From Treponema sp. (GTDB lineage Bacteria > Spirochaetota > Spirochaetia > Treponematales > Treponemataceae), in contig JAFXWC010000064.1 of assembly GCA_017534445.1 (NCBI GenBank), positions 14,769-78,768 on the forward strand: DNA of 64,000 nt. The letters are read 5' to 3'. The notes under the pieces were generated by a model. It saw only the letters and a program-made list of their open reading frames with translations, was not told the DNA's origin and did not search any database. A program made the position numbers and the translations under genes. Shown here piece after piece: positions 31,198 to 38,697 of this stretch (its first letter is position 1; each line of letters begins with the position of its first letter).

Positions 31198-31989
31198 ATG
31201 GCATACATACAGATTTCAGACCTTTACAAAACATTTCATCCTCACGGACAGAGTCTTCCTGTATTAAAGGGAATAAACCTTTCCATTTCAAAGGGTGAGA
31301 TTTTTGGAATCATAGGTTTTTCTGGTGCGGGAAAATCCACCCTTGCACGCTGCATAAATTGCCTGGAGACTCCTGACAGCGGAAGCATAAACATTGGCGG
31401 TACGGACATCCTTTCGCTTTCAAAAAAAGACTTGCGCCATGAACGCCGCCGCATTGGAATGATTTTCCAGACCTTCAACTTGTTTGAGTCAAAGACTGTT
31501 TACAAGAACATTGCCTATCCTCTTTTGATTGCGGGGGTTGGCAGGTCGGAAATAAAGGAGCGTGTTGAAAAGGTTGCGGAACTGGTAGGTCTTACGGACA
31601 AGCTTGGTGACTATCCCGGAGGACTTAGCGGTGGCCAGAAGCAGAGGGTTGGAATTGCGCGTGCCCTTATAAATAATCCAGACGTGCTTTTGAGTGACGA
31701 GGCAACAAGTGCACTTGACCCGCAGACCACTTTGCAGATTTTGGACTTGCTTAAGGAGATAAATCTTAAGACAGGAATTACGATCCTGATGATTACGCAC
31801 GAGCTTGAGGCCGTAAGGTATACCTGCGAGCGCATGGCGGTTCTTGAGGAAGGAAAGATTGTAGAAGAAGGTGATGTTCATACAATCTTTAACAATCCGG
31901 AAAGCAGGACCGGTGAGCTTTTTGCAAAGGTTTTCTACCGGCTCAACACTTCGGACAAGATGTATCAGAACGGTATGTACATTATTTAG
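31198..31989 (+). CDS. metN: MetN-type ABC ATPase lacking the C-terminal NIL domain
   Basis: GIIGFSGAGKSTL.RCIN.LE.P, LSGGQKQRVGIARAL, LLSDEATSALDP.TT; only 263 aa. Confidence 0.85.
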   Translation: MAYIQISDLYKTFHPHGQSLPVLKGINLSISKGEIFGIIGFSGAGKSTLARCINCLETPDSGSINIGGTDILSLSKKDLRHERRRIGMIFQTFNLFESKTVYKNIAYPLLIAGVGRSEIKERVEKVAELVGLTDKLGDYPGGLSGGQKQRVGIARALINNPDVLLSDEATSALDPQTTLQILDLLKEINLKTGITILMITHELEAVRYTCERMAVLEEGKIVEEGDVHTIFNNPESRTGELFAKVFYRLNTSDKMYQNGMYII

Positions 31990-32000
31990 GAGGTGCGAAA

Positions 32001-32711
32001 ATGAGTTTGCTTGACAACAGTCTTTGGGCGGTGCTGAAGTCTTCTGTCTCCGCTAAAATTTGGTCAGCTATATGGCCTTCGATTTTTGACACTCTTTACA
32101 TGACCGTGGTTGCAAGTCTTATAGTGCTGGTACTTGGCCTTGCCCTTGGCGTGATGCTTACGGTTACAAGCCCGGATGGTCTTTATCCGGTGAAAGGTCT
32201 TTATTCTGTTTTTGGTTGGCTAATCAACACCCTTCGCTCCCTGCCGCAGATGGTGATGATAATCCTTTTGATTCCGCTTGCAAGGTTCTTGTTTGGAAAA
32301 AGCTACGGTGCCAATCCCTGCATTGTTGCCATTGCCGCAAGCTGCATACCAATGTACGCGCGTGTCGTGGAAAGCAGCATCCTTGAAATTGGCAAGGGAA
32401 AGATTGAGGCCGCAAAGTCAATAGGAAGCTCCAACTTTCAGATTGTCTTTTATGTGCTTCTTCCAGAAACCCTGCCTTCTTTGGTAAGGGGCTTTACAAT
32501 AGCAGTGATTGCCGTTCTTTCCATGACGGCTCTTGCGGGAATGTTCGGTGCTGGTGGCATAGGAGACATTGCGGTGCGCTACGGCTACCAGCGCTTTCAA
32601 CATGACAAGCTTTTGGCCTGCATCTATGTCTTGGTTGCGATGGTTCAAATTGTTCAGTGGTCTGGGAATTTGATTTCAAACAAAATCTTAAAAAACAGGG
32701 CCTTGGTATAG
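32001..32711 (+). CDS. metI: MetI-type ABC permease
   Basis: TLYM, IN..RSLP, IEAAKSIG, LPE.LPSL, GAGGIGD.A.RYGYQRF. Confidence 0.88.
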   Translation: MSLLDNSLWAVLKSSVSAKIWSAIWPSIFDTLYMTVVASLIVLVLGLALGVMLTVTSPDGLYPVKGLYSVFGWLINTLRSLPQMVMIILLIPLARFLFGKSYGANPCIVAIAASCIPMYARVVESSILEIGKGKIEAAKSIGSSNFQIVFYVLLPETLPSLVRGFTIAVIAVLSMTALAGMFGAGGIGDIAVRYGYQRFQHDKLLACIYVLVAMVQIVQWSGNLISNKILKNRALV

Positions 32712-32754
32712 GTTCTGTTCAATATAAAAAACAAATTTAAGAGGAGAATCGATT

Positions 32755-33639
32755 ATGAAAAAAACATTGATTGCTGTTTTGGGAATTGGATTGGCTGTGC
32801 TCGCTCTTAGCTCTTGCTCCAAGAAAAACAAAAAGGTTGCAGACTGCTGCAAGGACGGTACTGCCGACTGTTGTAAAGACGGAAAGGCCGACTGCTGCAA
32901 GGAAGGCTCAGAGGAGGGTGTTGTTACCCTTAAGGGAATAATTGACCTTGTGCCTCATCAGGAAATAATTGATTATGCTGCCCCGGCTTTGTTAAAGGAA
33001 GGAATAAAGGTTGTTACCCTGCAGGATGCTTCCGACAACTTGGGAAACGAAAAGACATTCAACGGCGAAGCTGATTTTAACTACTTCCAGCACAAGCCTT
33101 ATTTGGATTCTGTAAACATTCAGAACGGCTGGGATTTGGTGAGCGTAGCTTCAATTCACGTGGAGCCTATTTCACTCTATTCCGACAAATACACAAGCCT
33201 TGCTGATGTTCCAGAAAATGCGGTTATAGCAGTTCCTGATGATGGAACCAATGAATACCGCGGACTCAAGCTTTTGAACGACAAGGGGTTCATCCGTCTG
33301 AGCGAGGATTCTTTGAGCGCACTTGATGCAAACACAGGCGACATCATTGAATACCTTAAGCCAATAAAAATCGTGGAAATCAACGCATTCCAGATTATTC
33401 CGACACGCGCAGACTACGATCTTTTTGTGAACAACACTAACAAGATTTTGGAAAGCGGAATAAAGACGAACATATTGGCTCAGGAATCACCTGATAGTCC
33501 TTATGGAAACATTATCGTAACAAAGGCCGGACGCGCAAACGATCCTGCCATTCAGAAACTTGTCAAGGTTCTGCTTAGCGATGATGTTCAGAAGTGGATA
33601 AAGGAAAAGTACAACGGAGCTGTAATTCCGGTAAAATAA
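32755..33639 (+). CDS. metQ: MetQ/NlpA-family substrate-binding lipoprotein with a Cys-rich repeat insert
   Basis: Lipobox LSSC; PH.EI, NYFQHKPYL, HVEP..LYS, TN..R.L, SPY.N, KYNGAVIP. Confidence 0.85.
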   Translation: MKKTLIAVLGIGLAVLALSSCSKKNKKVADCCKDGTADCCKDGKADCCKEGSEEGVVTLKGIIDLVPHQEIIDYAAPALLKEGIKVVTLQDASDNLGNEKTFNGEADFNYFQHKPYLDSVNIQNGWDLVSVASIHVEPISLYSDKYTSLADVPENAVIAVPDDGTNEYRGLKLLNDKGFIRLSEDSLSALDANTGDIIEYLKPIKIVEINAFQIIPTRADYDLFVNNTNKILESGIKTNILAQESPDSPYGNIIVTKAGRANDPAIQKLVKVLLSDDVQKWIKEKYNGAVIPVK

Positions 33640-36891: not shown

Positions 36892-36910
36892 AGAATTGAT
36901 TTTGTGAGGA

Positions 36911-37792
36911 ATGGCGATGGCAAAAACATTTGATGAAATTTCAAAAAATCATCCCTGCTTTGCGCTCGGTCAAAAGTCAAACAAGGGACGCATTCACCTT
37001 CCGGTAAGCCCCGGATGCAACATTGGTTGCCGTTTTTGCCACCGCGACTTTAACGACGAACAGGTAAGGCCGGGAGTTGCCAGCTGCATAATCTCGCCGG
37101 ACGAGGCAATAGAAGCTATCCGCCGTGCAGTGAAGCTTTCTCCCGATTTGACCGTTGTTGGTGTTGCGGGACCTGGCGATACTTTGGCAACGGACTTTGC
37201 CCTTGAAACCTTTAGGAAAGTGCGCGATGAATTTCCTTCAATGATAAAGTGCATGAGTACCAACGGACTCCTTCTCCCGCAGAAGGCTGACCAGATTATT
37301 GACGCAGGAATTGACACTCTCACCGTAACAGTAAATGCGGTTGACCCGGAGATTCAGGCAAAGATAAATGAGTTCATTGTTTACGAGGGAAAGCGTTACG
37401 AAGGAGTTGAGGCTGCTCAAATCCTTATCCAGAACCAGCTTGCCGGCATAAAAAAAGTTTCGGCTGCGGGGGTGACCGTAAAGGTAAACACGGTTTTTGT
37501 TCCAGAGATAAACAGGGAGCATATTCCGCTTGTGGCAAAGACTGTCGCTGAGCATGGGGCCACAATCTACAACATAATTCCGCTTATTCCCCAGCATCAG
37601 TTTGACTGGTGTTCGGTTCCTTCATGCAAGGACTTGTCTTGGGCAAGGGGTGAGTGTGAAAAATACATAAAGGTTTTCCGCCACTGCCAGAGGTGCAGGG
37701 CAGATGCTGTTGGCGTTCCTGGTGGACAGGATTTTTCAAAAGAAGTGTATATAAAACCGGTGAGACTTGCTGACACCTTCTCTCACGGTTAA
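36911..37792 (+). CDS. nifB: Short-form NifB radical SAM protein (MarB-like)
   Basis: HPCF, RIHLPV.P.CNIGCRFC, VAGPGD, STNG, T.TVTVN, HCQRCRADA. Confidence 0.9.
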   Translation: MAMAKTFDEISKNHPCFALGQKSNKGRIHLPVSPGCNIGCRFCHRDFNDEQVRPGVASCIISPDEAIEAIRRAVKLSPDLTVVGVAGPGDTLATDFALETFRKVRDEFPSMIKCMSTNGLLLPQKADQIIDAGIDTLTVTVNAVDPEIQAKINEFIVYEGKRYEGVEAAQILIQNQLAGIKKVSAAGVTVKVNTVFVPEINREHIPLVAKTVAEHGATIYNIIPLIPQHQFDWCSVPSCKDLSWARGECEKYIKVFRHCQRCRADAVGVPGGQDFSKEVYIKPVRLADTFSHG

Positions 37793-37848
37793 AAATAAAA
37801 CGATAGTAATCAGAGGATGGCAATCTGAATATCAATAAGGAGTGTAAA

Positions 37849-38697
37849 ATGGCTACAAGACAAATTGCAATTTATGGAAAAGGCGGTATCGGAAAATCAA
37901 CGACTACGCAGAACCTGACGGCTGGACTTGCCGAAATGGGGAAGAACATCATGGTGGTTGGCTGCGACCCTAAGGCTGACTCAACAAGACTTCTTTTGGG
38001 AAACCTTGCCCAGAAAACCGTTCTTGATACAATCCGCGAAAACGGTGAAGATGTTGAACTTTCGGACATTATGCGCGAAGGTTTTGGCGGAATCAAATGC
38101 GTTGAATCTGGCGGACCGGAACCTGGTGTTGGCTGTGCAGGACGCGGAATCATCACATCCATAGGTCTTTTGGAAGAACAGGGTGCCTATACGGAAGACC
38201 TTGACTATGTTTTCTACGACGTACTTGGTGACGTTGTATGCGGTGGCTTTGCAATGCCAATGCGTGAGGGAAAGGCAAAGGAAATATACATCGTTGCATC
38301 CGGTGAAATGATGGCAATGTATGCCGCAAACAATATTTCCAAGGGTATTGCAAAGTATGCGGTAAAGAGCGGGGTTCGCCTTGGAGGAATTATCTGCAAC
38401 AGCCGCAACGTTGACCGCGAAAAGGATTTGCTTACTGCTTTTGCAAAGGAACTTGGCACTCAGCTTATTTACTTTGTTCCAAGAAACAACGTTGTCCAGC
38501 GTGCAGAAATCCACCGCCAGACTGTAATCCAGTATGATCCAAAGTCAGGACAGGCAGATGAATACAGAAGCTTGGCACGTGCAATAGATTCAAATACAAA
38601 CTTTGCAATTCCAAAGCCAATGACTCAGGAACGCCTTGAAGAAATCCTGCTTGAATATGGCTTGATGGAATCGCTCAAGGACAACTACAATATTTAA
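37849..38697 (+). CDS. nifH: Nitrogenase iron protein homologue (NifH/MarH-like)
   Basis: [50 protein letters not shown]. Confidence 0.93.

Follow-up and report, generated by a model that had tools for sequence, protein, structure and literature searches.

A MetNIQ-type importer and a nitrogenase-like reductase of probable Group IV-A type in one putative sulfur-controlled operon of a rumen Treponema

The methylthio-alkane reductase (MAR) of Rhodospirillum rubrum, MarBHDK, belongs to Group IV-C of the nitrogenase-like (NFL) enzymes and is represented by the structures 9FMG and 9D9U (PMC12552129; Chem Rev review). Functionally verified MARs have also been reported from Ruminiclostridium and Selenomonadaceae lineages (PMC13753814), and the gene arrangements described for proven MARs are B-H-D-K and X-B-H-D-K. 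The NflDK3-type loci of R. palustris have an adjacent O-acetylhomoserine sulfhydrylase gene, are induced by sulfur limitation and showed no activity on the volatile sulfur compounds tried. The isethionate reductase IsrBHDK of Rhodobacter capsulatus (Group IV-F) acts in anaerobic sulfur assimilation on a non-volatile organosulfur compound that is delivered by the co-induced ssuCAB system, and thus provides a precedent for import-and-cleave logic. Group IV-A is defined by NfaDK of Endomicrobium proavitum; weak N2-dependent growth has been claimed for E. proavitum and H. fasciatum, and a review questions N2 fixation as the primary role of Nfa (Chem Rev review). Here we describe a locus of Treponema sp. 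GCA_017534445.1 that lies in a stretch of 64,000 nt (contig JAFXWC010000064.1, positions 14,769-78,768), hereafter the window, in whose numbering coordinates are given. It contains eight ORFs of the same orientation in the order metN-metI-metQ-D-K-nifX-like-nifB-nifH (31198-38697, +). The explanation that we favour, with reasonable confidence, is that these genes form one sulfur-controlled operon, in which a MetNIQ-type importer is combined with an NFL reductase of the Group IV-A/Nfa-type clade, not one of the proven MARs of Group IV-C, and that the enzyme most likely cleaves C-S bonds. A sulfur-scavenging role, taken by itself, is highly probable.

As judged from published residue numbers, the locus resembles E. 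proavitum NfaBHDK in the presence of B, H, D and K without NifEN, in a seven-cysteine pattern in D, in a cysteine spacing of 24/60 in K and in an Arg-His ligand loop. In contrast to that system, the window operon encodes a NifH-like Fe protein, begins with a methionine-type importer, carries a sulfur-regulon operator and is hosted by a rumen spirochaete, and its context does not support the N2-fixing role proposed for E. proavitum. With R. rubrum MarBHDK it shares the P-cluster cysteines, the equivalents of Cys270, Arg428-His429, Trp195, Phe199 and His375, the presence of NifB/MarB without NifEN (for the window, by gene content only) and nearby metNIQ-type genes in a sulfur context. Unlike the R. 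rubrum system, it belongs to a separate clade, differs at six pocket or channel residues, shows a K spacing of 24/60 instead of 24/65, has the gene order D-K-X-B-H instead of B-H-D-K, and has a Fe protein of the NifH-like kind. Similar to R. palustris NflDK3 and comparable Group IV systems, its D and K genes lie beside a putative methionine transporter; however, NflDK3 is alphaproteobacterial, is 52-56% identical to MarDK1 and probably lies within or near the clade of MarD (M1, see below), whereas the window D belongs to another clade (M3) and its importer is fused into the same operon. A linkage of metNIQ homologues to mar/nfl genes has published precedents in R. rubrum and R. palustris, so that this kind of association is not novel; particular to the present locus is the direct operonic fusion. 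Finally, the window resembles IsrBHDK in that an NFL enzyme has an associated ABC importer, but the two belong to different groups, and Isr is reported to lack the P-cluster and the cofactor ligand set, both of which are kept in the window D/K.

The initial annotation regarded the enzyme as MAR-like. In our trees the sequence P0128 (616 bits to 9fmg_A) served as a proxy for R. rubrum MarD. A first FastTree, with one representative per 50%-identity cluster, placed D and P0128 together in a clade of eight rows and hence in Group IV-C, but this placement was split by denser sampling, in which D paralogues from Ruminiclostridium and Selenomonadaceae genomes were added and a PMSF mixture-model was used. 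The denser tree contains three clades with 100% ultrafast bootstrap each, of which those of P0128 (M1) and of the window D (M3) also have 100% SH-aLRT. M1 comprises P0128 and sequences from Clostridia and Negativicutes (Selenomonadaceae, Ruminiclostridium), several of them in B-H-D-K or X-B-H-D-K clusters. M2 comprises sequences from C. kluyveri, Kineothrix, Treponema primitia and Brevinematales, and M3 contains the window D, a rumen Treponema group, many Clostridia (Lachnospiraceae, Acetivibrio, Ruminococcus albus) and Pectinatus. With D in M3, the MarD proxy in M1 and the motifs not diagnostic, the MAR-like label is not supported as a statement of family membership.

The cysteine residues point to the identity of M3. 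The published numbers for E. proavitum NfaD are C53/C78/C146 for the P-cluster, C50/C60/C81 for additional cysteines and C257 for the cofactor, and those for NfaK are C13/C37/C97 (Chem Rev review). Crown M3 D proteins have exactly this seven-cysteine pattern, the Pectinatus copy being numbered identically (C50/C53/C60/C78/C81/C146/C257), and the window D has C49/C52/C59/C77/C80/C144/C255. Each of the clades M1, M2 and that of the second D/K pair of this genome lacks two or three of the seven. In K, the NfaK spacing of 24/60 was found in M3 only; M1 and M2 have 24/65, and the remaining clade has 24/59. Because E. proavitum NfaDK defines Group IV-A and the M3 cysteine pattern matches it, M3 can be read, indirectly and from published residue numbers, as Group IV-A (NfaD-type).

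The motifs named in the initial annotation are all present in D, namely KVWTTGFD (179-186), INFWGSD (211-217), QACSTLG (253-259) and ARHGG (412-416). Their aligned counterparts in R. rubrum MarD (PDB 9fmg_A) are KHWSTGFD, INLWGSD, Cys270 and Arg428-His429, so that the likeness to MarD in W..GFD and N.WGSD noted in the initial annotation is real. With the roles of MarD residues taken from PMC12552129, Trp181 and Phe185 of D correspond to MarD Trp195 and Phe199, at the positions of NifD Gln191 and His195, whereas Cys255 corresponds to Cys270, Arg413-His414 to Arg428-His429, and His360 to His375. The six P-cluster cysteines are all kept (C52/C77/C144 in D; for K see Table 1). Both subunits are far below the curated cut-offs of canonical nitrogenases (D 145-177 bits against 505-874 for NifD, NifE, VnfD and AnfD; K 78 bits against 427); they fail the NifD, NifK, NifE and NifN models, D lacks the Gln191/His195 pair, and the nearest 150 cluster representatives sampled all fall below the Nif cut-offs. 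The description of the enzyme as nitrogenase-like and not canonical was therefore correct.

An alternative explanation is a true MAR, in which case the transporter beside it would do no more than take up methionine at the same time when sulfur is limiting. The R. rubrum MAR is the closest solved structure by a wide margin, with 401 bits for D (9fmg_A/9d9u_A; next match 132) and 341 bits for K (9d9u_C; next match 68); the cofactor ligands and the Trp/Phe pocket residues are common to both enzymes, and in our residue table the N(F/L)WGS motif is common to M1 and M3 only. Dimethylsulfide (DMS) is present in the rumen at 1-100 uM, R. rubrum induces its metNIQ homologues together with the mar genes, and among the Group IV-A systems tested by expression in R. 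rubrum, that of Clostridium magnum alone made methane from DMS. However, D lies outside the fully supported clade that contains the MarD proxy, to which its BLAST identity is ~39-40%. The mar2-cluster ligands and P-cluster cysteines are common to other Group IV clades and hence not diagnostic of MAR, and the W..GFD and Arg-His motifs occur in several NFL clades. Of the nine pocket or channel residues named for the MARs of R. rubrum and R. palustris, six are changed in D (M70 to R56, Q74 to M60, Y98 to F84, I101 to T87, H194 to V180 and S196 to T182), which keeps C59 (MarD C73), W181 and F185 as well as F359 (MarD F374) and H360. The M1 members of Negativicutes and Clostridia keep M70, C73, Q74, Y98, I101, H194, W195, S196 and F199, and the alphaproteobacterial proxy P0128 itself departs at M70 and I101. 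Furthermore, 13 of 43 Group IV-A systems expressed in R. rubrum formed neither ethylene when given (2-methylthio)ethanol (MT-EtOH) nor ethane when given ethylmethylsulfide (EMS) above threshold, and NflDK3, for all its identity to MarDK1, is inactive on the volatile compounds tried. NifH-like Fe proteins work poorly in R. rubrum, so the negative Group IV-A tests are not final and could stem from that property; according to the authors of the tests, Group IV-A systems are usually co-localised with sulfur genes. Taken together, the phylogeny and the pocket residues argue against a simple equivalence with MAR; the hydrocarbon chemistry that the label implies is hypothetical, and we regard a true MAR as unlikely.

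Regulation provides evidence for a sulfur role of the operon. Upstream of metN, two copies of a 17-bp palindrome flank a candidate promoter (Table 1). The CCTAT and TAGG half-sites of the downstream copy are invariant in all eight rumen Treponema orthologous loci (8/8), which also keep the position of the upstream copy relative to metN (8/8), whereas the remaining upstream sequence diverges; a TTGAC/TTGAT block is kept in the aligned orthologous upstream regions. Six exact 17-mers occur in the genome. The four intergenic ones are all at sulfur amino-acid genes, namely at this operon, at metY, at a divergent pair of cysK and an Rrf2-family regulator gene, and at an operon that contains genes for a LysR regulator, a cystathionine gamma-lyase/synthase-like protein and a further ~303-aa ORF, probably a PALP gene as judged by its position. 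Relaxed matches to the palindrome are no more numerous in the genome than expected by chance (14, vs 12-25 in shuffles), the informative evidence being the 17-bp spacing class and its locations only. The palindrome is likely a repressor site of a cysteine/sulfur regulon, and the set of operators looks like a cysteine-responsive regulon, for which the Rrf2-family gene beside cysK would be the obvious candidate regulator. No member of the PAPS-reductase family was found in the 90%-complete genome, which suggests that there is no assimilatory sulfate reduction.

As the initial annotation had noted, nifEN, PII and amt genes are absent from the cluster, and no PII, amt or nif regulator gene was found in or near the operon. 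The 90%-complete genome (3.08 Mb) encodes neither NifE/NifN nor a canonical nitrogenase; it has four PF00148 genes, which make up two NFL D/K pairs, and one NifH. The sole PII in the genome is the C-terminal domain of a 584-aa Amt-PII fusion ORF on contig C62 (locus L110, 3273-5027, -). With the operator common to metY, the cysK/rrf2 pair and the cystathionine-lyase operon, and with no linked PII or amt, the proposed wiring to sulfur rather than to nitrogen is upheld.

The genes were assigned by Pfam and NCBIfam profiles with curated cut-offs applied (Table 1). All eight were confirmed as co-oriented and tightly spaced, with intergenic gaps of 11, 43, 31, 40, 19, 19 and 56 bp in operon order, so that metQ and D are separated by 31 bp. 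No credible terminator was found inside the cluster, where shuffled sequence gave more terminator-like matches than the real one. No riboswitch or leader RNA was revealed upstream when 27000-43000 was scanned with Rfam at E<=1, and the GC content gave no clear island signal. Among the maturation proteins, the NifX-like protein matched TIGR02663 (nifX) and the NifB C-terminal domain, both below the cut-offs, and the NifB core matched TIGR01290 (nifB) with 274 bits over profile positions 7-285 of 441, with the HPC and CxxxCxxC motifs present. The Fe protein belongs with the NifH-like ('Group I NflH') proteins, with 474 bits to C. pasteurianum NifH (1cp2, the best PDB match) and 295 bits to R. 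rubrum MarH (9fmg_D).

Parts of the stretch are contained in six RNA libraries. Three studies provided four RNA libraries of rumen or gut origin whose contigs were mapped to the region, and these contigs cover metQ through H at 93-100% identity, with little or no cover of both flanks; such contigs cannot rank expression. Individual contigs bridge metQ-D (33518-34148 and 33489-33703), K-X (36027-36619) and X-B (36733-36967), as would be expected if at least metQ is co-transcribed with the enzyme genes and if these are expressed in vivo. Cattle and sheep rumen samples both contain detectable transcripts. The tie between importer and enzyme genes that the initial annotation had assumed is thus borne out by the short metQ-D gap and by the contigs bridging it.

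Table 1. Coordinates of the operon genes, the candidate promoter and the palindrome copies (window numbering, or contig of the same genome where named).
Feature	Position	Strand	Description
MetN-like ABC ATPase	31198-31989	+	263 aa; PF00005; lacks the C-terminal NIL/C2 regulatory domain
MetI-like ABC permease	32001-32711	+	PF00528
MetQ/NlpA-family substrate-binding lipoprotein	32755-33639	+	PF03180 at 195 bits; lipobox Cys21
D, nitrogenase-like alpha subunit	33671-35131	+	486 aa; PF00148; clade M3
K, nitrogenase-like beta subunit	35172-36518	+	448 aa; PF00148; P-cluster cysteines C15, C39, C99
NifX-like (NflX) predicted cofactor carrier	36538-36891	+	PF02579 at 60.5 bits
NifB/MarB-type radical-SAM maturase	36911-37792	+	core only, without fused NifX domain
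NifH-type Fe protein	37849-38697	+	TIGR01287 at 457.6 bits (cut-off 394.35 passed)
Candidate sigma-70-type promoter	31096-31124	+	-35 TTGATT (31096-31101), 17-nt spacer, -10 TAATAT (31119-31124), read from sequence
Putative operator, upstream copy (17-bp palindrome)	31058-31074	+	TCTAT-N7-ATAGG, one mismatch to CCTAT-N7-ATAGG
Putative operator, downstream copy	31142-31158	+	CCTAT-N7-CTAGG, between -10 and ribosome-binding site
Palindrome copy at metY	C31:41392-41408 (locus L111)		O-acetylhomoserine sulfhydrylase; TIGR01326 at 644 bits
Palindrome copy at divergent cysK / Rrf2-family regulator pair	C41:11610-11626 (locus L113)		regulator CymR/IscR-like
Palindrome copy at LysR-x-cystathionine-lyase operon	C65:52888-52904 (locus L112)		

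All three importer proteins score below the curated MetNIQ cut-offs: the MetN-like ATPase with 296.6 bits against 499.7 for TIGR02314, of which it covers profile positions 2-249 of 343 only, having lost the methionine-sensing NIL domain, the MetI-like permease with 152.6 bits against 212 (NF008049), and the MetQ-like lipoprotein with 109 bits against 374 (NF008285). Canonical metN (337 aa, full length), metI and metQ genes are present on contig C69 of the same genome, the operon copy being an extra set, and the MetQ-like protein is a divergent paralogue, 40% identical to the canonical MetQ. NFL-linked homologues of the short ATPase in 24 loci are ~262-311 aa long, and the same type is found beside M3 clusters in Clostridia with 62-77% identity. 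These comparisons indicate that the importer is a specialised NFL-associated variant of the methionine importer family and probably not the housekeeping methionine importer; its type fits the delivery of a methionine-like substrate. The linker of the MetQ-like lipoprotein (32815-32905, residues 29-51) contains three tandem ADCCK[D/E]G repeats with six cysteines. These repeats are common to the closest relative, Treponema sp. UBA6988, only and do not occur in other Treponema or clostridial homologues; the linker could be a metal- or thiol-binding tether.

The closest loci belong to eight rumen or gut Treponema/Spirochaetaceae metagenome-assembled genomes (MAGs) with D proteins 89-97% identical, the nearest being that of UBA6988, which has flanking GH43, SDR and VanZ genes in common with the window. 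Many gut metagenomes, of bovine and other origin, contain nearly identical DNA. The gut treponeme postulated as host was confirmed and can be specified as a rumen Treponema. The order metNIQ-D-K-X-B-H is kept in the rumen Treponema group; metNIQ-like systems accompany M3 clusters in just 24 of 80 loci, these being the 80 closest loci in a species-representative genome collection. NitT/TauT-type ABC systems were found in 34/80 of the same loci, and sulfur genes were frequent (cystathionine-lyase-like 45/80, MetY-like 47/80, CysK-like 41/80).

Other gene arrangements were observed among these relatives. Four sibling rumen Treponema MAGs (L011, L013, L014 and L016; ~14100-21300) have a cystathionine-lyase-like gene and two PALP (CysK-like) genes between B and H. 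In L011 and L013, H is followed on its 3' side by genes for a NifX-like protein, an SBP_bac_3 protein and a second D/K pair of clade M2; in L014 only the start of this NifX/SBP/D-K array precedes the contig end, and in L016 the array was not found. These sibling arrays are larger sulfur islands. Many clostridial M3 loci (e.g., L035, 14770-19134) carry a MetY-like sulfhydrylase gene and a NitT/TauT-type (NMT1) ABC transporter between NifB and NifH; the same enzyme cassette has thus been combined with different importers.

In the tree, the rumen isolate Lachnospiraceae bacterium C10 is the sister (100/100) of the rumen Treponema group, which is nested in Clostridia. The C10 proteins are 90% (H), 76% (K), 70% (B) and 69% (MetN) identical to those of the window. 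Among 151 sampled Treponemataceae genomes, an M3-type D was found in the genome of the window alone. Because of the nesting in Clostridia and the absence from the other sampled Treponemataceae, horizontal transfer from rumen Clostridia is the probable origin of the operon, followed by a rearrangement that put metNIQ in front of D.

In the proposed mechanism, cysteine or sulfur limitation would free the operator and turn the operon on, and the variant MetNIQ-type importer would take up an organosulfur compound. An L-cluster-type [Fe8S9C] cofactor would be assembled by the NifB core and the NifX-like protein and passed directly to D/K, with no NifEN involved. The NifH-type Fe protein, reduced by a flavodoxin or ferredoxin encoded elsewhere, would drive the ATP-dependent reduction of the D2K2 P-cluster; a flavodoxin and a pyruvate:ferredoxin-oxidoreductase-type enzyme are indeed encoded elsewhere in the genome. 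The C-S bond of the organosulfur compound would then be reductively cleaved, and the thiol product would enter cysteine and methionine synthesis via the co-regulated MetY, CysK and cystathionine-lyase. We infer the cofactor type, the C-S cleavage, the substrate and the identity of the regulator. Of the 'self-contained' import-and-cleave unit suggested initially, the sulfur-scavenging logic is retained, and the self-containment is not, the thiol-assimilating enzymes being encoded elsewhere in the genome, though under the same operator.

The preferred candidate substrate would be a non-volatile, methionine-like compound brought in by the operon's own importer. The idea of a non-volatile substrate is plausible, and the chances that the linked importer delivers the substrate appear slightly below even. 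Some S-methylated amino acids and their derivatives may be plentiful in forage. A more specific version, in which a non-volatile S-methylated amino acid (methionine, S-methylcysteine or derivatives) would be imported and cleaved to homocysteine, cysteine or methanethiol plus methane or another small hydrocarbon, is doubtful.

Several observations weigh against the proposed sulfur-controlled import-and-cleave operon of Group IV-A. The group assignment was built on published residue numbers and not on an alignment of E. proavitum sequence. The Fe protein is NifH-like by its bit scores, unlike the MarH-like NfaH of E. proavitum, which is reported to cluster with MarH; both NflH groups are found among Group IV systems (mBio), and a MarH-like Fe protein may not define IV-A. 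The scarcity of metNIQ-like systems among the M3 loci, many of which have NitT/TauT instead, means that the importer may be an interchangeable accessory and not the substrate supplier. The operator is missing at the second NFL pair of this genome and at the canonical metNIQ. On the RNA side, metN and metI are sparsely covered, with contig ends near 32777-32780; contigs are no proof of a single transcript, and they may stem in part from carried-over DNA. Finally, no biochemical function has been established for M3/Group IV-A enzymes beyond the claimed weak N2 fixation of E. proavitum and H. fasciatum.

The second D/K pair of the genome lies on contig C77 (locus L008), with a K-like gene at 175-1461 (-) and a D-like gene at 4802-6253 (+). 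Between them are genes for RibD_C (1476-2288, -), SBP_bac_3 (2439-3269), a permease (3290-4006) and an ABC ATPase (4019-4768), so that an ABC importer of the polar-amino-acid type is coupled to this pair. As no NifH or NifB gene comes with it, the pair presumably shares H and B of the window operon. Its D falls into a different NFL clade, together with P0131 and P0138.

Two further explanations concern the reaction itself. In one, the target of the window enzyme would not be a C-S bond but, for instance, a sulfoxide, a disulfide or a sulfur-amino-acid-linked cofactor intermediate, or its D/K would be a maturation scaffold for the pair on C77. The clade has no agreed function, the genome's second pair has no B or H of its own, and E. 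coli MetNIQ carries methionine sulfoxide and related derivatives, all of which leave room for such a role; however, D keeps a full catalytic-type ligand set that is MarD-like rather than NifE-like, most M3 loci have no second D/K pair, and there is no evidence specifically in favour of this explanation, which we consider quite improbable. The rumen is generally regarded as ammonia-rich, which counts against N2 fixation as well. An Nfa-type alternative nitrogenase with weak N2 fixation or nitrogen-oxide reduction, to which the NfaDK-like cysteine signature, the nfaBHDK gene set without NifEN and a Fe protein that passes the NifH equivalog cut-off would point, is very improbable given the lack of PII, amt or nif regulator genes in or near the operon, the fusion of the sole PII to Amt on another contig, the operator common to metY, cysK and cystathionine-lyase genes, the Trp and Phe at the Gln191/His195 equivalents and the doubts of the review itself about N2 fixation as the primary role of Nfa.

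Outside the operon, a Mac-type hexapeptide acetyltransferase gene and a GNAT gene (29878-30999) are located directly upstream. They were considered as part of the operon, but are missing at this position in the closest relative, UBA6988 (locus L009), and therefore do not belong to the operon but form a strain-specific insertion. A probable VapBC-type toxin-antitoxin pair, consisting of a 70-aa ORF and an adjoining PIN-domain ORF (27047-27648), lies about 3.5 kb upstream. The gene just downstream of the operon (39219-42539, -) encodes a probable surface protein of 1106 aa, in which Big_2 and BspA-type leucine-rich repeats were recognised.

The locus is read here as a new spirochaetal member of the known Group IV-A family, and its operon is real and probably expressed. 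Group IV-A, among the largest of the nitrogenase-like clades, lacks an agreed function; weak N2 fixation in two organisms is all that has been proposed. With the importer and the enzyme in one operon, and with an operator common to core cysteine and methionine genes, the locus offers a clean handle on this group, and it suggests a short list of candidate substrates and a regulator. It also places the enzyme family in Spirochaetota via an apparent transfer from rumen Clostridia. If the substrate is not an S-methyl compound, the locus still warns that motifs alone are no sound basis for an annotation of such clusters as MAR or nitrogenase. If import and cleavage of an S-methylated amino acid proves true, it would give Group IV-A a first defined sulfur substrate and the rumen a bacterial, non-archaeal route to hydrocarbon gas, and with an S-methyl substrate rumen bacteria could be a minor non-archaeal source of methane or ethylene.

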